Shown here piece after piece: positions 1 through 20,000 of a stretch of DNA of 20,000 nt (positions are counted from its first letter, which is position 1; each line of letters begins with the position of its first letter). The notes under the pieces were generated by a model. The model was not told the DNA's origin. It saw nothing but the letters and a program-made list of their open reading frames with translations, and made no database searches. The DNA comes from Catajapyx aquilonaris (taxonomy: Eukaryota): positions 45,165 to 65,164 of the forward strand of contig JYFJ02002021.1 of NCBI GenBank assembly GCA_000934665.2, read 5' to 3'. A program made the translations under genes and the position numbers.

Positions 1-53
1 CAAATGGATCTAGCGAAAGAACGTTATACACATAAGAGATGTAACAGACTTGC

Positions 54-1369
54 CAACAAATTTCTGTGCCGATAAGGTTTGTCCGTAATTAACCATGAGT
101 GCAGACATAATTATCTCATCCGTGAAATGGTGCCCATACCCATCGCTACGAAAACCATCTTCACTCGAAGTCTCGGTCATGTTTATGAAGCTGGGGTCCA
201 TGGCTGTCAGAAGTTCTGCGACACTGTTAAAAGCTTCACCTTTTGCTTGCGCCGTGTATATTCTGAAAGTGAGACAATTAAGTGTTATTGTACGCGTGAT
301 TACCGAAACAACATCAATAACTTCACAAAGGACATCTTGATATTGGAAGTAACAAAGCCAAAAATGAATTGATTATTATCATTGTATTGACAGAAATATT
401 TCTGTCTCAGAATATGTTTACCATAAATTGCTGGTTAGTACAAAATTACACGGATGTACTCTGAGAAATGTCATGCGTAATTTTAAACTCACCTGTCAAA
501 CTTGTCCAGCATAGAAGAAATGGCCAGTTCCATTTTCATCATATTGAATCCATACTGATACAAAAATTTAGCAGCCGTAATTATCATGGAATTGCTCTCA
601 ACAAACACGAACTTCTCCCCATTGTATATTCCAACTTTCTCGTTCCCCGACTCCTTCGCCTCCAGATCTGAAATTCAACACGTCGACATTAACGACAATC
701 CAATTAAAAATAAAACCCGCTACTCACCGACAAGCTTAGCAAACTGACGGACATACTGGTTCCTCGGATGGATAATACTTCCACCTTCCTCGTACTCGTA
801 CCCGCTCACATTCACAGTCCGCAACCGTCCGCCAACTTGGTCCGCTTCGTACACATCAATTTCACATTTCCCTTTTCCAAAAAGCTGTTCCAAAAAGTAA
901 GCCGACGACACTCCGCCAATTCCAGCACCAATTATTCCTGAGAAAGTTAAACGAAGACATTATTAAGTCCGCAGAAGTAATTGTTGTATGACAAATTTGC
1001 CTTACATCCCTAGTATGGCATCACGAAACGCCCTGCGACATCCAATGGATATTTAAATGGATCTCCACCGGATATCTACATTGAATCTCCACCGGATATC
1101 TACATTGAATCTCCACCGGATATCTACATTGAATCTCCACTGGATATTTCAATATCCATAGGATGTCACTGTGCTACTTATTCTGATATTAAGACTTATC
1201 ATAATTACATTAATGACAATTAATAACATGAGACTGATGCAAATTATTGACATTTTTGGCACAAAATGGAATACTTGCCGATGCTTGGAACGTCGTCATT
1301 TCCTTCGTTAACCAAGGCTGTCATAAATGGGGCCGAAAGAAGTAGCAGCAACGAGCACTCGAATTTCAT
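54..1369 (-). CDS. PCYOX1: Prenylcysteine oxidase 1-like, 5' partial (first 4 coding exons; gene continues left of the window)
   Basis: Phase-consistent exons 1369-1279, 937-728, 667-493, 262-54. They give signal peptide MKFECSLLLLLSAPFMTA, FAD-binding IGIIGAGIGGVSSAYFL, VYEADQVGGRL, YEEGGSIIHPRNQY, GIYNGEKFVFVES and VNYGQ...FVG, all recognisable PCYOX1 motifs. Intron 1 and probably intron 4 need GC donors. Confidence 0.92.
1037..1167. repeat. 24-bp tandem array (GGATATCTACATTGAATCTCCACC, about 4 units) bracketed by 17-bp inverted repeats, in PCYOX1 intron 1
   Basis: Units start at 1047 (degenerate, 23 nt), 1070, 1094, 1118, with a partial unit at 1142. GACATCCAATGGATATT (1037-1053) matches the reverse complement of AATATCCATAGGATGTC (1151-1167) with 1 mismatch. 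Confidence 0.88.
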
Positions 1370-1816
1370 TATTAAATGTATATATTTTTGCGTAATTTTT
1401 TTAAATTGCGTTCACGCACTTTTTCGACTTGCAAAATTTTGGAACCGCGCGCGGTCGGCGACAGTCAACTGTTCTCTCAGACTGAAAAAAAAGTGATTGC
1501 GACAAATACATTCTTTATCTTGCCAAATAATATTAAGTTAATCTTTTTTTTTAAAAAAAAGTAGATAAGATATGTTTTTTAAAAATAATTTTATCATTCC
1601 ATTTCGAATAGCAGCTTCATTTGACTGCTACAATAAGCTGCGACTGTTAACAGCGTTTAGAGCCATCCCATTAGCTGCTTATTTTGAATGGATCGAAAAA
1701 TCACGTCGCGTTTGTCGGCCATGACAGGTTGGGGGGGAAAAAAATACGTGTCGTCTTTTCTTTTTTGATTCTTCGGCATAATTTTTGGCAATAATTTTGG
1801 TTCCGCCCGCTGCTAA
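1370..1816. promoter_or_regulatory. Probable bidirectional promoter region between PCYOX1 and BBIP1/LMBRD2
   Basis: Divergent start codons (1369 minus, 1817 plus) are separated by 447 bp of AT-rich sequence with CpG-containing patches. Transcription starts cannot be located from sequence. Confidence 0.6.
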
Positions 1817-2071
1817 ATGTCTGAACCAAAGCAGATCAGCTTCAAGGAGTTCCTCCCACGCAAAGGGCTGCTCCACCAGGAGGACGTCCCTACATACGCT
1901 CTGTGCAAGCCTAAGCTGATGCCCCTCAAGTCCTTCACACTGGAGAAGCTTGAAAAGGTTCAGAAAGAAGCGCAGGGAAAAGTTGCACAGGCCAGGAGAG
2001 AAGAGGAGGAGGAGGAAGAAGAAGAGGAAGAACAGGAAGGGCAAGGGGTAGTTGAAAGGGAAGAGTATTAA
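1817..2071 (+). CDS. BBIP1: BBSome-interacting protein 1 (BBIP10/BBS18) homolog, 84 aa, intronless coding region
   Basis: FKEFLPRKGLLHQED...LCKPKLMPLKSFTLEKLEKVQKEAQ matches the recalled BBIP1 core (FREVLPKQG..FVED...[20 protein letters not shown]). Codon usage is GC3-rich like the neighbouring genes. Confidence 0.92.
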   Translation: MSEPKQISFKEFLPRKGLLHQEDVPTYALCKPKLMPLKSFTLEKLEKVQKEAQGKVAQARREEEEEEEEEEEQEGQGVVEREEY

Positions 2072-2089
2072 ATAATAAAAGGAAGAACG

Positions 2090-4828
2090 ATGGGGGCCGG
2101 ACCTTTAGTTGTCGAGATTGTTCTGACGTTCCTTCTGGCCGCCGTTCTGCTGTACCAGTACGGGAACTGGCACAGGCATCACGTGGTGGTCACCGTGTCG
2201 GTGCTGGTCGCCTGGTACTTCTCGTTCATCATCGTGTTCATCCTGCCTCTGGACGTCTCCGGGGTGAGTCCGCACCTTTCGTAATGGACAAAGTGTTGTC
2301 CATTGCAACATTGCATGGCAACATGTTGACATTCATGCCAACATTGCGTGGCAACATGTTTGACATTCATGCCAACATTCCATGGCAACATGTTGACATT
2401 CATGCCAACATTGCGTGGCGACATGTTGACATTCATGCCAACATTGCTTGGCAACATGTTGCCATTCATGCCAACATTGCATGGCAACATGTTGAGATTC
2501 ATGCCAACATTGCGTGGCAACATGTTGAGATTCATGCCAACATTTCGTGGCAACATGGTTGCCATTGCCATGGCTACGGGGTTGTATAGCGATGTATTGA
2601 TGTGCTGATTGTTTAATTTTTTCAGACTATATACAACCAGTGCAGCAAGGAGCATGAGCTGATTTTTACGACGACTACTGCGGCGACGTTGTTGCCAAAT
2701 GCGACTAATATTACGATTGATTCGGATAATATTACGTACTTGTCTAATGAGACTGTTGTGCCTGAGGAGAATCCGTGCGTTCAGCCGTGGAGTTATGTCG
2801 ATAGGGATATCATGTGCGAGCTGTGGCGAGTTGTGTACTGGACTTCGCAATGTTTGACATGGTAATAGTTTCGTACTCTCAACGTGAATTTGGGGATGTC
2901 TAATGTACTTGTCGTTTCAGGCTGATACTCCCGCTGATGCAGTCGTACACTCAGGCAGGCGATTTCACCGTGGGAGGCAAACTCAAGTCTTCCCTTATAG
3001 ACAACGCCATCTACTACGGGTCATACATGTTCATATGCGGGATCCTGCTGATATACATTGCAATTAAGCCGATGCCATTGGACTGGTACGTTGCCTTTCG
3101 TTGGGATGTCGCACATTTGTTGCAACGGTTTTCCTTCAGGGCGCAACTGAAGGCCATAGCTGCAGCCGCAAGCAACACGTGGGGCCTATTCCTCCTGGTT
3201 CTGCTGTTGGGCTATGGGCTGGTCGAAGTCCCCCGCACTCTGTGGAACTCGAGCAAGCGGGGATTCACCCTGCAATATGCATACTTCAAAGCGGCCAAGC
3301 TCAGCCTGGAAAGAGGCGAGGCGGAAGAAGCTCTGGATGACGTCCTGGAGAGCCTTCTGGCTGCTTGCGAATCAGTCCGGGATGGAGGGAGGATGAGCGG
3401 GGTGCAATCGAGACAGAACGTGGAGACCATCCTGCAGAAAGTTCCTACCGAGCTCAGAGACAGGATGAACAGGAGGCCTCCACCGGACGACATCCCTGTT
3501 GAGCCTCTTTCGGAAAAGGCCCTGGTGAGTATCCACTAACCACGGCTGGTCAATCCGTAAAGCAAACTTTCCTTTCAGGTCCGGCTGCACCGCCAGACCA
3601 TCAAGGCCTTGCAACGTCACCACAGGACAGAGACCCAGTGGGGTCTTCTGATGGATGCGATCCTGGATCTGGAAGACATAAACCGCAACGAGGGCAGCAA
3701 TGACCGGTGCTTCAAGCCGACATTCCCGGTGACCAGACGTCCACGCTGGCTCTGGTTCTGGTACACTGCGAACGTGGAGTGGTACTGGAAGTGCCTACTG
3801 CGCAGCTACGTCCGGAAGGTCACCGCGGTTGCCCTGGGCATCCTCTCCGTCTTTGTCGTATGGTCGGAGGTGACCTTCTTCAACGAGAAGCCTGTGCTCT
3901 CTCTTTTCGCCGTGTTTGTCAACGTGGCCAAGCAGTCATACGACTACCTGTCTATTGAGCTCATATCCTCAGCTATCATCGGGTACCTCTGCGTGTGCGC
4001 ATACTACACCATCTTCAAGATCAGGGTACTCAACTTGTACTACCTGGCACCGTACCACCAAACGGACGAGTACAGCCTCATCTTTTCTGGGATGTGAGTG
4101 ACGTCCATCGATGTTTTATCGATCATACGAGTACTGTAACTTTGACTTGTTGCAGGTTGTTGTGCCGTCTGACTCCTCCGCTGTGCTTAAACTTCCTGGG
4201 CCTCGTGCACATGGATTCACATGTGATTAAGGATGCACATCTTGAGGCCTGCTACACTAAGATCATGGGCCACATGGACGTGCTGTCCATTGTATCGGAT
4301 GGCTTCAACGTGTACTTTCCGATGGGCATCCTGGCCCTCTGTCTGGCCACCTACTTTGACTTGGGTTCCCGTCTCCTCACCCTCCTCAGCTTCCAGCAGT
4401 TCATTGGCGACAATGACATCACGGCCAACTTGGTGGATGACGGCAGGGAGCTCATCCGAAGGGAGAAGAGGAGAAGGCAGAGGGCCGAGGAGTCCTCCCA
4501 GCGGCAGAGGGACTTCCAGGAGAAGTTCGGAGGCCACTCAGCTTACAGGAGCGCAAGGCAGAGAGCCGAGGAAAGAGGTACTTCTGTGGGATAAAATCAA
4601 CACGGGTTTAAGATTCCACTCATGCCTTTAATTCCCATTCCAGTACGTAATTTGAAGAGGACGGACTCGACAGAATCAGCCCGTGCTGAGTTGCTTCGAG
4701 ACGCTGAGCCAATTGACTATATGGGCACAGTTCATGATGCGAGGGGGCAGCAGCAGATGGGTGAACCTTCGGAGGCACCGTCTGTCCGACCGGGGCCTCC
4801 GCCTAGGGGGATTTTTGATGACGTGTGA
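2090..4828 (+). CDS. LMBRD2: LMBR1 domain-containing protein 2 (multi-pass membrane protein), 7 exons, about 693 aa
   Basis: GT-AG exons 2090-2263, 2626-2861, 2921-3085, 3140-3524, 3579-4093, 4156-4577, 4644-4828 total 2082 nt in one frame. Motifs: [91 protein letters not shown]-terminal IFDDV. Confidence 0.95.
2303..2580. repeat. 33-bp minisatellite (ATGCCAACATTGCGTGGCAACATGTTGACATTC, about 8 units) in LMBRD2 intron 1
   Basis: ATGCCAACATT recurs at 2335, 2369, 2402, 2435, 2468, 2501, 2534, with a degenerate unit from about 2303. Units carry the palindrome CAACATGTTG and a TGCCA..TGGCA inverted pair. Confidence 0.95.
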
Positions 4829-5049
4829 TAAGTGCCGCCCGCAACATTGCTGAGTAGTCTTTGGTTACAATTCTAGTCGTCAACAACATTATGCAACACA
4901 TTCCATGTGTGACTAATATTCCTTTATTGTAATTGTCATGTTTGTCTGTGCTCTTTCAATGTGTTTTATTGCTTTTCTAATTTTTAGGGCCAAATTATTT
5001 ATTCCCTTCTCCCCCGTCACCCCGTTAACTTATTGTTCTTCTTGTTACT

Positions 5050-5055
5050 AATAAA
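5050..5055 (+). terminator. Candidate poly(A) signal of LMBRD2
   Basis: First AATAAA I found downstream of the stop at 4828; a second lies at 5304-5309. Confidence 0.55.
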
Positions 5056-5498
5056 GTCTACTTACCTTCACTCAGAATTTTGAAATGACACAGTAGGTGA
5101 GCCACGTCATGATCTATTCCACTCGCACATTCAATTACACAGACCCGTACGCTTTTTCAAACTTACAATCTAACTGGCAGCTAAAACAAACTGTGACTGG
5201 TTCGCAAACTAAAAACTGCGCTTGGCACATGCATTTGTACCAAAAGAAAAACAAAAGCCAACTGATAAAACTATTCAGAAAAAAAAAGCAACAAGCAACC
5301 CAAAATAAAGTTAAAAATATTCATCACCACTCTCTATATAATAATTATAACAGTAGGCTGCTTTCACCACCCATAATTTTTTTTTTCCTTTTCTTTCTAG
5401 TAATAATACTTATTGTCAGCACTATAATTACACGACTACTACATTTCCACCTCCGTGGGGGGAAAAGGAGGAGTTTTGTGACTAGGTTGTGATCCACA

Positions 5499-8400
5499 CT
5501 AGCTGGATGAGGGTCCTTCCATATGCTGCATCTCGTAGAGCACCTATCGAAAGAAATTGTTGTCAAATAATGGATGAATTTACGGTTGATGATAGGCGAC
5601 TTATTTCTGAATGTCTTTTGCCGTTTGCATTATTCGAATCAACTTACCTCAAGGATGCATCCCATGCTCCACGCCTGCGTCATACAGCTTCCCCAGCACA
5701 GCTCGCCGTTTTTGTTGGTGAGCTCCGGCAGTCCTCTCCAGTTGCTCTTCTGTACCTCGCTGTAATGCCGGGACACCACTGATCGCACTGTCGTCATGCC
5801 CTCTTCTTGCTTTTCCTTGTCCTGCGCTTTAGACATCCTGAGCTTGGCCAGAAGGAAGTAGCCCATGGGCCAGACCCACTCGGGCCCCTGGTGATAGTTG
5901 AATCCGTGGGCAGTGGAAGGGTCGTAGCCGTCGTCACTGTTGTCGTAACGACCATTGTAGCACCAGTCGGCTGGGTCCAGTGTGCGCATACCCAGTGGAC
6001 CCATGAGGAGGGACTGAGCCTTGCTCAGAGCGATCCAAGCATGGTTAGGGTCAAATATATCTGGAGCGACAGCCATTGCTACCGGGAAGTTGCATCTGTA
6101 ACGAGATAAGGAAAAATTGAATGAATTTAAATCCTTGTTTCACGATTGAGGAAACCGACCTAAGCTGATAATCGGCCCATGGCTGTGACGCTCCGACAGA
6201 GTCCTTGTAAATCCCCCTCCTGTGGATCAGTTCCGAGTGATGCTCCCCTGACGATCCAGGTTCCAGGGCGATCCAGAACCACTTTTCGAAGTTTTCTTTT
6301 ATGGTGTCCTCCCACTGCTTGAAGGTCCAAAACACTCTCTCTTCGTCCACCTGCCGCTCGACTCCCTCATAGGGGTAGAGCCCCTCCGAGTGCAACTTTC
6401 CGAGCCACTTGACGGCTGCGTAGCTGAGCGCCACTATCTCTATGGCGCTCCCGTCCCGCGGGGTGGCTGGCTGTCCCTTATTCCCAGCCTTCTCACTGGA
6501 ACCCATCTTGTCCATCCAGGTCCCAGCATTGTGGATATTTCCGCCGTACACAAATCCAGTTTTCAGATTAACCCCAATGCTGTTGTTGAATCCTTCATCA
6601 TTCATGTGCGCATCGATCTGCAGTCCAGCATTGCGTTCTCGGAAGGTGACGCCAAGGAAGTGGCGCTGAACAGCCTCCTGAATTGTATCCGACAGAAGCT
6701 GGATTGAAGGGGCAGTGTCAGAGGTGACACTAGCACTAACAGTGCTTGTATGTGATTCACTCGTACTATCTTCTTCAGGGGTATCCACTGGAAACAGGCG
6801 GAGGACCTTATCCTGACAATCGCATAGATAGAAAATTATTAAGCACACGTAGGGCATTTCAGAGTAACGTGCTCAATGCAGTTAATAATACCTGAAGTAT
6901 TTTAGCCCCATCTGGAACCATCTCCACGTAGCACTTGATGCACCACAGCCACCACCACACAGCATCCCTGCAGTTGAATCGTGCACACACTCCCCTGTCC
7001 AGCAGGTTGGGAATAAGCCCATGCCGCATTGCTCCTGCGAAACCCAGTATGATGAAGCGAGCCTCCTGGAAGCGGTCCGTCAGCAACAGCATTCCTCTGA
7101 GGGCAATAAACGTGTCCCGACCCCAGTTTCGCATGTAGCCGACCGAAAAGTGGGGTAGGCCTGCCGCCAACGTCGGGCAGGCCTCTTCCTTCTCACCCGC
7201 GTCGTTAAAGCACGTAGGCGGTGTGGGAGGGCTCAGGGTGGAGCACAACTTTGGCAGGCAGGCTGATGGCACGTAACCCGTCATTTGCACTGAGCCTAAG
7301 GCCAACATCTGGACAAACGTTGACCCCTCCCTCACAAATCTGCAAGTAGAAAGATCCGCAATAAGTACCATTTTCACATGATCTTTCCCGTAAGTACTTA
7401 CTTGCTGAAGAGATCCCATGCGTGATTGATGATGGCCAGGTATATGGCACATAGTACGGCTTCGAAGTAGCAAGGTATCAGGTAGCGTGGAATTTTCTTC
7501 AGTATCTGAAGGTTTTTCTGCATCCACTGGCCTAGACACTGTGTGCTGGTATGTTGCAGGAGTCGTCCATACGTGTACTCTGTTGTAGGGGAATGAGACG
7601 CAATCAATATAAATCGCACACAACAAGACAAGTGCGATAGCTCACCAAGCAGCCAGTCACCATCTCGGAGGTTAGAGCACAGTGGGTGACCCAGGTCGTT
7701 GCTCAACTTGATGGTGGACATCAGTGATATGATCCCTTGAAAACCACAGTAGTTGAGAGGCCCGTAGTTCGGTATGTTGTAGACCCCCCAGCCTTTCCCG
7801 TCTTCCTTCTCCTCCTCTTCGCAGCGGTAAAGGACACGGTTCAGGCTATTCAGGGTCAGATCTCTTATCAGACGTCGAAGCCGAAGAACATCTCCTTCCT
7901 GCAGGTCACGCGGGTTGCGATACATTTCCATTATCATGGATCGTGATATATTCACAGCATCGTGGTGGGATGGGTTCAACCTCACCCTGCAATGTGACAT
8001 GTTTTAAATTCCCATGACCATCAAGTTTTTTGGGAGATAACTAACCTGAAAGCGATGATGCTACCAGGCTGAAAAGTGTGAAACCCAATCTGTGTGACAT
8101 TTGGAGTCCCAGAATTCTCCAGCCGAACCATCTGCGATTCTGCCAGTGGGAAGTGCTCTTTCACATCCGCTGAATAGTCCACCAGACCAGTAATGTATTC
8201 TCCGTGCTTCTCATGCTTTCCAGGGCGGATGAAGTTAGGACTCCCACCGGCTTTGGTATTATGGTGAAGCGCACGTGACTCCAAGATCACTTCCACTACC
8301 ATCCCTTCAACTCGCAAGGGGGGAACATCATTACGCCAGAAATTCTCATCCGGCAGGCCAAATGCTGTATACGCCCGAAGGATCACGGACTCATGTGTAA

Positions 8401-19354: not shown

Positions 19355-19473
19355 GCCAAGGGCCATACCACGTTGAAAGCACCGGTTCTCGTCCGATCCC
19401 CGAAGTTAAGCAACGTCGGGCCCGGGTAGTACTTGGATGGGTGACCGCCTAGGAATGCCGGGTGCACTTGGCC
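19355..19473 (+). rRNA. 5S rRNA
   Basis: GCCAAGGGCCATACCACGTTGAAAGCACCGGTTCTCGTCCGATC...AGTTAAGC (box A)...TGGATGGGTGACCGCC (box C)...CTTGGC; oligo-T terminator follows. Confidence 0.97.
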
Positions 19474-19520
19474 ACTCTTTTTTTTTCCTNGGAGTACCTC
19501 CAGAAGACGCACCTTCTCTC

Positions 19521-19639
19521 GCCAAGGGCCATACCACGTTGAACGCACCGGTTCTCGTCCGATCCCCGAAGTTAAGCAACGTCGGGCAGGGGTAGTACTT
19601 GGATGGGTGACCGCCTAGGAATGCCGGGTGCACTTGGCT
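19521..19639 (+). rRNA. 5S rRNA
   Basis: Full-length copy with intact box C and T7 terminator; variant GGGCAGGGG near nt 64-72. Confidence 0.95.
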
Positions 19640-19719
19640 ACTCTTTTTTTCCTCTTCTTTCCAATGGAGGACGGTGGCCCTGGTGGAGTGGAGTACCTCC
19701 AGAAGACGCACCATCTCTC

Positions 19720-19838
19720 GCCAAGGGCCATACCACGTTGAACGCACCGGTTCTCGTCCGATCCCCAAAGTTAAGCAACGTCGGGCTCGGGTAGTACTTT
19801 GATGCGTGACCGCCTAGGAATGCCGGGTGCACTTGGCT
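19720..19838 (+). rRNA. 5S rRNA, variant copy (possible pseudogene)
   Basis: Full length, but box C reads TTTGATGCGTGACC instead of TTGGATGGGTGACC, and CCCCAAAG replaces CCCCGAAG. Confidence 0.85.
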
Positions 19839-19918
19839 ACTCTGTTTTTCCTCTTCTTTCCAATGGAGGACGGTGGCCCTGGTGGAGTGGAATACCTCCA
19901 GATGAAGCACCATCTCTC

Positions 19919-20000
19919 GCCAAGGGCCATACCACGTTGAAAGCACCGGTTCTCGTCCGATCCCCGAAGTTAAGCAACGTCGGGCCCGGGTAGTACTTGG
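19919..20000 (+). rRNA. 5S rRNA, cut by the window end
   Basis: First 82 nt match the 19355 copy. Confidence 0.93.

Follow-up and report, generated by a model that had tools for sequence, protein, structure and literature searches.

How does a ribosome reach a coding sequence whose start codon lies 18 nucleotides (nt) behind the stop codon of another one, and are both read from one messenger RNA (mRNA)? This question is raised by a 20,000-nt stretch of Catajapyx aquilonaris DNA (contig JYFJ02002021.1, positions 45,165 to 65,164 of the forward strand; hereafter the window, numbered from its first letter), in which an open reading frame (ORF) for BBIP1 is followed on the same strand by the gene for LMBRD2 (Table 1). 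A sequence-only reading of the window had proposed that the two proteins are translated from one mRNA and that leaky scanning is how the second is reached. The first proposal is now backed indirectly, by conservation of the pair in five other lineages, by a contig (L032) carrying both ORFs and by a FlyBase record. As for the second, the start-codon contexts and ATG positions are real, but they form no signature beyond chance and are not conserved in relatives. We propose that a mature dicistronic mRNA is the probable main source of LMBRD2.

The BBIP1 ORF and the LMBRD2 gene

The ORF opened by ATG 1817 has 84 codons and a TAA stop (2069-2071), with another in-frame TAA (1814-1816) abutting its start. 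In a Pfam profile search it matched BBIP10 (PF14777) with an E value of 4.7e-25 and 87.4 bits against a cut-off of 26, residues 1-64 covering profile positions 1-63 of 64, and its 84 amino acids (aa) are inside the family size of ~65-90 aa. An alignment of BBIP1 sequences (A1) has 21 invariant columns, including L29-S39 and T41-E46, and the invariant core LCKPKLMPLKS.TLEKLE is found in the window protein. On these sequence features the product is identified as BBIP10/BBIP1/BBS18, and a role as a BBSome subunit is predicted. The tail of the protein, encoded by 1992-2047, is acidic and of low complexity. At codon 48 (1958-1960) the window has Val where 9/10 sequences of A1 have Met, which leaves it with one in-frame AUG fewer. 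The same codon-48 change away from Met is seen in BBIP1 of L053, a hemipteran-like locus described below.

Downstream, seven LMBRD2 exons splice to a 693-aa coding sequence (CDS) without stops, and the six GT..AG introns are backed by contigs of the sequencing run X1 (joints 2262>2625, 2860>2920, 3084>3139, 3523>3578, 4093>4156 and 4575>4642). Four pieces of the gene were scanned with Pfam, three of them being ATG-started parts of exons; the LMBR1 profile (PF04791) matches exon 1 and three later exons, at profile positions 3-56, 106-278, 299-448 and 470-510 of 510. The N-terminus read from ATG 2090 aligns with the full-length LMBRD2 proteins P0011 and P0120, and this ATG is assigned as the conserved LMBRD2 N-terminus. 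The boundaries given in the sequence-only reading, with a BBIP1 ORF complete to 2071, LMBRD2 starting at 2090 and 18 nt between them, are confirmed by the sequence and by the two Pfam matches. Among the 120 proteins listed for the largest LMBRD2 exon, those with informative names are 'LMBR1 domain-containing protein 2 homolog' of insects and crustaceans; identity to the listed relatives over this exon is 56-69% (best 69%), and full-length identity to relatives is ~58-65%. By its closest named relatives, rather than by a tree, the gene is classified as LMBRD2 and not as LMBR1, LMBR1L or LMBRD1. The same matches place the source organism among the insects and crustaceans, at some distance from any named species in the database.

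It is noted that LMBRD2 intron 1 is mostly occupied by a 33-nt tandem repeat (2306-2566; 7.8 copies, 91% matches). It should also be mentioned that eight Daphnia LMBRD2 models of 730-927 aa (P0028, P0029, P0036, P0038, P0039, P0043, P0046 and P0047) contain an extra COX6B domain (PF02297), which hints at another small adjoining ORF fused into the cladoceran LMBRD2 model.

In the spacer between the two genes, purine-rich sequence precedes the only AGs and there is no polypyrimidine tract; no credible 3' splice site is predicted there. The sequence-only reading, which held that 18 nt cannot accommodate both a 3' end and a promoter, overlooked overlapping transcripts. An AATAAA is located at 2074-2079, 3 nt past the BBIP1 stop.

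Conservation of the BBIP1-LMBRD2 pair

Metagenome contigs were scanned with the BBIP1 alignment, giving 68 loci, which were then searched by tblastn with the window LMBRD2. In 14/68 loci, from five lineages labelled by their nearest named proteins, LMBRD2 exon 1 lies 13-98 nt downstream of BBIP1 on the same strand. For example, LMBRD2 exon 1 of the cockroach/termite-like group shares 93% identity with its Periplaneta americana counterpart, and BBIP1 of the ant-like group shares 97% with the Trachymyrmex cornetzi protein. All the upstream ORFs that were tested matched BBIP10, with E values of 5.5e-19 to 3.3e-27; LMBRD2 of the relatives is down to 44% identical to that of the window. An intron follows approximately codon 57-72 of LMBRD2 in the window and in all lineages except L032. 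The remaining 54/68 loci showed no LMBRD2; four of these have <300 nt of downstream sequence, and the 50 with at least 300 nt carry another BBIP1 subtype (...EVLPKQGQLY...KLLPLKS...) or a much more divergent one. Linkage goes with the arthropod-type BBIP1 within this 68-locus sample.

The same arrangement is found in annotated genomes. BBIP1 and LMBRD2 have consecutive locus tags in the cricket Gryllus longicercus (R5R35_001900 and R5R35_001901) and the crab Petrolisthes cinctipes (Pcinc_013322 and Pcinc_013321). Both genes are on scaffolds of equal length in eight more (Cephus, Copidosoma, Ceratosolen, Trichogramma, Anoplolepis, Monomorium, Pogonomyrmex and Lycorma), so that in RefSeq/GenBank they are annotated on same-length scaffolds in ten species in all. 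Because the adjacency recurs in independent lineages, it is beyond chance. Spacer identity among the cockroach/termite-like loci (91-100%) is uninformative, since the species are too close and their introns are alike too (83-100%). On this comparative evidence, we regard the locus as the local copy of an old pancrustacean (insect and crustacean) arrangement, a real and conserved pair of the dicistron type.

Evidence for a shared mRNA

One public run, X1, of unstated kind, contains this stretch, and because its contigs skip introns they are RNA-derived. They lie over parts of both ORFs, at ~1723-1991 (the BBIP1 leader and most of the ORF) and from 2077 through LMBRD2 exon 1 (cover 2077-2262) into exons 2-4, these extents being arithmetic from depth bins and the 'side' column. 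The cover of LMBRD2 exon 1 begins 13 nt 5' of AUG 2090, and no X1 joint attaches a different 5' exon to it. A 16-codon mini-ORF with a G at -3 sits at or just 5' of the probable start (~1723) of the BBIP1 RNA contig. It is probably outside the mRNA, and would be a true upstream ORF of BBIP1 if some transcripts begin further upstream.

A link between the two ORFs in a relative is found in L032, in which BBIP1 is followed after 16 nt by an intron-less LMBRD2 ORF of 655 aa (LMBR1 E 9.1e-178). L032 is most simply a cDNA-derived contig (cDNA, DNA copied from RNA) or a retrocopy, the alternative being wholesale intron loss; if it is either of the former, a mature mRNA with both ORFs has existed. Positions 1-340 of L032 have ~60% G+C compared to ~30% in the BBIP1-LMBRD2 part; an atypical leader, a chimeric assembly or some adjoining feature could account for this, and antisense ORFs in this segment had no Pfam match. 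Complete intron-less LMBRD2 proteins, P0011 (700 aa) and P0120 (651 aa), and the BBIP1 proteins P0175 and P0159 are encoded on contigs of matching lengths (4410 and 3285 nt), and from this equality P0011 appears to share its contig with P0175, and P0120 with P0159. In addition, a 68-aa BBIP10 protein of Nesidiocoris tenuis carries the name 'LMBR1 domain-containing protein', a misnaming that is explained by a pipeline choosing the first ORF of an LMBRD2-like transcript.

A corresponding pair is on record for the fly. File S1 of the FlyBase 'Rule-Benders' paper (Crosby et al. 2015, PMC4528330) gives CG42511 and CG8135 one set of coordinates, each gene being marked 'all di/polycistronic' and 'unrelated', with a stop-to-start distance of 141 nt and no monocistronic form for either gene. 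CG8135 is the LMBRD2 ortholog according to the available part of PMC10409296, and CG42511 would be BBIP1, as suggested by synteny in the other lineages. If CG42511 is BBIP1, the pairing appears to be already recorded for the fly in the FlyBase dicistronic list. Our literature search found no paper on CG42511 and, among the matches listed, none discussing a BBIP1-LMBRD2 pairing or transcript, and the main text of Hayden and Bosco 2008 (PMC2276209) contains no CG8135, LMBR or BBIP.

Routes to the LMBRD2 start codon

The only ATGs in 1700-2100 are at 1721, 1817, 1919 and 2090, all in one frame. The sequence-only reading had described weak contexts for the BBIP1 AUG and for 1919, an optimal one for LMBRD2, and 1919 as the only other ATG between 1817 and 2089, and both the contexts and the census agree with the sequence: tgctaaATGtc for BBIP1 (T at -3, T at +4), aagctgATGcc for 1919 (C at -3, C at +4) and agaacgATGgg for LMBRD2 (A at -3, G at +4). 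The window thus combines a weak context for its first ORF with a strong one for its second. The A at -3 of the LMBRD2 AUG is present in 6/6 lineages and is their sole common feature.

In the mechanism that we favour, transcription would start near 1723, in the ~330-nt region held in common with a prenylcysteine-oxidase-like gene, and the mature mRNA would carry the BBIP1 ORF without splicing, joined through the 18-nt spacer to all seven LMBRD2 exons. Cap-loaded ribosomes would translate BBIP1 from AUG 1817, and 40S subunits getting beyond the BBIP1 ORF would start LMBRD2 from AUG 2090. Given such a dicistron, resumed scanning or reinitiation after the UAA at 2069-2071, a route tolerant of upstream AUGs, would have close to an even chance. 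Leaky scanning past the two weak AUGs, permitted in this species alone, is a serious possibility, though somewhat short of even, and internal entry or another route would be rather doubtful.

A number of observations weigh against this account, some against the shared mRNA and others against one of the routes along it. A monocistronic BBIP1 mRNA could use the AATAAA at 2074-2079 and end within LMBRD2 exon 1, and an internal LMBRD2 start site, compatible with the sequence, may exist. The identity of the contigs shared by P0011/P0175 and P0120/P0159 is taken from their lengths, and that of fly CG42511 from synteny. No X1 piece lies over 1992-2076 (1992-2047 is repeat-masked and 2048-2076 is without cover), and no contig was seen bridging both ORFs. 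This gap is uninformative either way, because of the masking and because LMBRD2 itself is split near 3251, inside an exon, into X1 contigs of unlike depth. With respect to reinitiation, Kozak-type reporter work has established that a long first ORF and a short spacer both lower it; by analogy, an 84-codon ORF with spacers of 13-18 nt would disfavour this route. L032, with its 16-nt spacer and 8 internal ATGs, fits neither reinitiation nor leaky scanning in simple form.

The observations against leaky scanning are both statistical and comparative. The first ORF and the spacer are not depleted of AUGs, as the zero out-of-frame ATGs observed compare with a mean of 0.64 in a null of 20,000 synonymous shuffles with protein and codon usage fixed (P = 0.46), and the five relatives show no ATG depletion either (P 0.11-1.0). 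Each of these five lineages has 5-8 internal ATGs, 1-5 out of frame and 2-5 in frame, and in three of them (cockroach/termite-like, ant-like and L032) the BBIP1 AUG has a purine at -3; some of their spacers contain short ORFs. The leaky-scanning signature fits the window but cannot be the family-wide mechanism on present sequences, because it is statistically non-distinctive and unconserved. Taken as a full account of the locus, pure leaky scanning would have most 40S subunits skip AUG 1817 and AUG 1919 and start at AUG 2090, with BBIP1 output set by the leakiness of its own AUG. We consider this unlikely in view of the observations just given, although just two AUGs precede 2090 in the contexts described, the Val at codon 48 takes away one more, an 18-nt spacer is bad for reinitiation, and leaky scanning is reported for green-alga bicistrons in the available part of PMC11291117.

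A shared mRNA would not be needed at all if BBIP1 transcripts were cleaved after the AATAAA at 2074-2079 and LMBRD2 transcripts came from an internal start within or just after the BBIP1 ORF. The position of this hexamer directly past the BBIP1 stop agrees with two overlapping monocistronic mRNAs, as do the AATAAA or ATTAAA hexamers that the cockroach/termite-like and ant-like groups have 7-14 nt ahead of their LMBRD2 AUG, and the annotation of BBIP1 as its own gene by NCBI in many Hymenoptera. However, such hexamers are by our estimate fairly frequent by chance in AT-rich spacers, and a 5' untranslated region (UTR) of at most 13 nt would be unusually short. The lack of a monocistronic form for either fly gene in FlyBase and the linkage of BBIP1 to an intron-less LMBRD2 in L032 point the other way. 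Same-strand spacers down to 13 nt, kept while LMBRD2 identity falls to 44%, would also be hard to explain without a shared transcript. Two overlapping mRNAs seem to us unlikely.

Two further explanations have very little probability. In an operon-like precursor mRNA, spliced-leader trans-splicing at an AG before AUG 2090 would separate the two messages. Spliced-leader operons occur in tunicates, nematodes and some copepods, and the order AATAAA, then AG (2080-2081), may resemble the junctions of tunicate operons; by arithmetic, the LMBRD2 RNA contig starts a few bases 5' of this AG. On the other hand, the sequence before the AG is purine-rich without a polypyrimidine tract, and among the X1 contigs no unmatched leader sequence is listed at this point, a weak test as it covers contigs only. 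The arrangement is also present in insect lineages, in which spliced-leader trans-splicing is not known, and FlyBase models a processed dicistronic mRNA for the fly pair. This makes trans-splicing very improbable. Fainter still is the chance that readthrough of the BBIP1 stop codon yields a fusion of the two proteins. In the window the two ORFs share a frame, the distance 2090 - 1817 being divisible by 3, and only the TAA and six sense codons stand between them, but none of the five other lineages keeps this relation (offset 1 or 2). Moreover, the TAA is followed by A, the least readthrough-prone context.

Surroundings of the locus

Upstream, the divergent prenylcysteine-oxidase-like gene has exons backed by RNA contigs at 53-262, 493-667, 728-936 and 1278-1389, and the divergent intergenic or promoter region of ~330 nt (1390-1722) is common to this gene and the BBIP1 5' end. 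A 24-nt tandem repeat (1047-1179; 4.2 copies) is located within one of its introns. Several X1 RNA contigs match this segment at 90-95% and then diverge from the window sequence (loose ends 1130-1179), a pattern suggestive of a dispersed repeat.

Downstream of LMBRD2 are a convergent glycogen-debranching-enzyme gene, an INTS5 gene and a 5S ribosomal DNA array with repeat periods of 166 and 199 nt. A single 3340-nt X1 RNA contig runs from the 3' exons of LMBRD2 into a glycogen-debranching-enzyme exon (CT..AC joint 5541>5646; window 3251-6000), and since it joins both genes, their 3' ends overlap or abut in the assembly.

Table 1. Features of the BBIP1-LMBRD2 locus and its surroundings in the window, with the linked loci of other lineages.
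Feature	Position or loci	Strand	Basis or spacer
BBIP1 (BBIP10/BBS18) ORF, single exon	1817..2071	+	PF14777; RNA-derived contig cover over 5' part
A-rich spacer, 18 nt, without ATG: ataataaaaggaagaacg	2072..2089	+	sequence, ATG census
LMBRD2 exon 1, codons 1-58	2090..2263	+	LMBR1 PF04791, E 4.9e-17; GT donor at 2264
LMBRD2 intron 1	2264..2625	+	joint 2262>2625 (cut +1)
LMBRD2 exons 2-7	2626-2861, 2921-3085, 3140-3524, 3579-4093, 4156-4577, 4644-4828 (including stop)	+	GT..AG joints, Pfam LMBR1
16-codon mini-ORF, ATG 1721, TGA 1766-1768	1721..1768	+	ATG census and sequence
Prenylcysteine-oxidase-like gene, divergent upstream neighbour	53-1389	-	Pfam Prenylcys_lyase, NAD_binding_8
First exon seen of prenylcysteine-oxidase-like gene	1278..1389	-	CT..AC joints
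Tandem 5S ribosomal RNA genes, 3 full and 1 cut by window end	19355-20000	+	Rfam RF00001, 64-102 bits
Linked pair, cockroach/termite-like	L003, L004, L007, L013, L014, L018, L019, L054		spacer 77-79 nt
Linked pair, ant-like	L009, L011, L012		spacer 70 nt
Linked pair, hemipteran-like	L032		spacer 16 nt
Linked pair, cladoceran-like	L050		spacer 13 nt
Linked pair, hemipteran-like	L053		spacer 98 nt

Implications of a probable shared transcript

The value of the finding includes the naming of the two partners, BBIP1 and LMBRD2. If they share an mRNA, RNA interference (RNAi) against fly LMBRD2 would destroy both cistrons, and its phenotypes would be partly or wholly BBIP1 phenotypes. Any LMBRD2 knock-down or 5' disruption in insects would likewise affect a BBSome subunit. 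The male-fertility phenotype of CG8135, for which the available part of PMC10409296 gives an RNAi hit without validation by CRISPR (clustered regularly interspaced short palindromic repeats), should be re-read accordingly. Under annotation with one CDS per mRNA, arthropod BBIP1 is located before LMBRD2 in what appears as the LMBRD2 5' UTR, so that surveys of arthropod BBSome genes could miss it. The spacers of 13-141 nt and the varied AUG content of these loci form a natural series on how ribosomes reach a second cistron.

The lasting linkage may also hint that LMBRD2, about which little is understood, is tied in function to the BBSome. In the boldest form of this idea, the BBIP1-LMBRD2 dicistron would be an ancient pancrustacean 'eukaryotic operon' kept for joint function, with LMBRD2 serving the BBSome as membrane partner or cargo-side factor when ciliary or G-protein-coupled receptor (GPCR) membrane proteins are trafficked, and the shared mRNA would fix co-expression or the ratio of the two proteins; we think it improbable. 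The coupling of two GPCR-related functions suggested in the sequence-only reading is speculation.

Comparison with known systems

Dicistronic mRNAs whose second cistron is reached by different routes provide a frame for this locus. In the Drosophila stoned/Snapin-type dicistrons, Wall et al. in 2005 (cited in PMC4528330) reportedly proposed 'resumption of scanning'. The window locus may resemble these dicistrons in having a first cistron poor in internal AUGs and no obvious internal ribosome entry site; unlike them, the relatives of the window locus have internal Met codons. The leaky-scanning bicistrons of green algae, as described in the available parts of PMC7896298 and PMC11291117, share with the window a weak start and few internal AUGs in the first ORF and a strong start in the second, whereas the window signature is not beyond chance and is absent in relatives.

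An mRNA that encodes first a small conserved protein and then a larger one, as we infer for the window, is also found in MOCS2A/MOCS2B (CG42503/Mocs2 in the fly) and SNURF-SNRPN, both likewise kept over long evolutionary distances. The MOCS2 cistrons encode two subunits of one enzyme; unlike that pair, BBIP1 and LMBRD2 are not known to be linked functionally or physically. Unlike MOCS2 and SNURF-SNRPN, the BBIP1-LMBRD2 pairing is confined to insect- and crustacean-type loci among those sampled, and the human BBIP1 and LMBRD2 genes are on different chromosomes. The fly MOCS2 cistrons are 11 bp apart (File S1, PMC4528330). The window shares with fly CG42511-CG8135 a downstream LMBRD2 ortholog (identified as such in the available part of PMC10409296), a small upstream protein that is not flagged as <60 aa, the same strand and a short spacer, and it differs in having 18 nt in place of 141 nt between the cistrons, the fly partners being listed as 'unrelated'.

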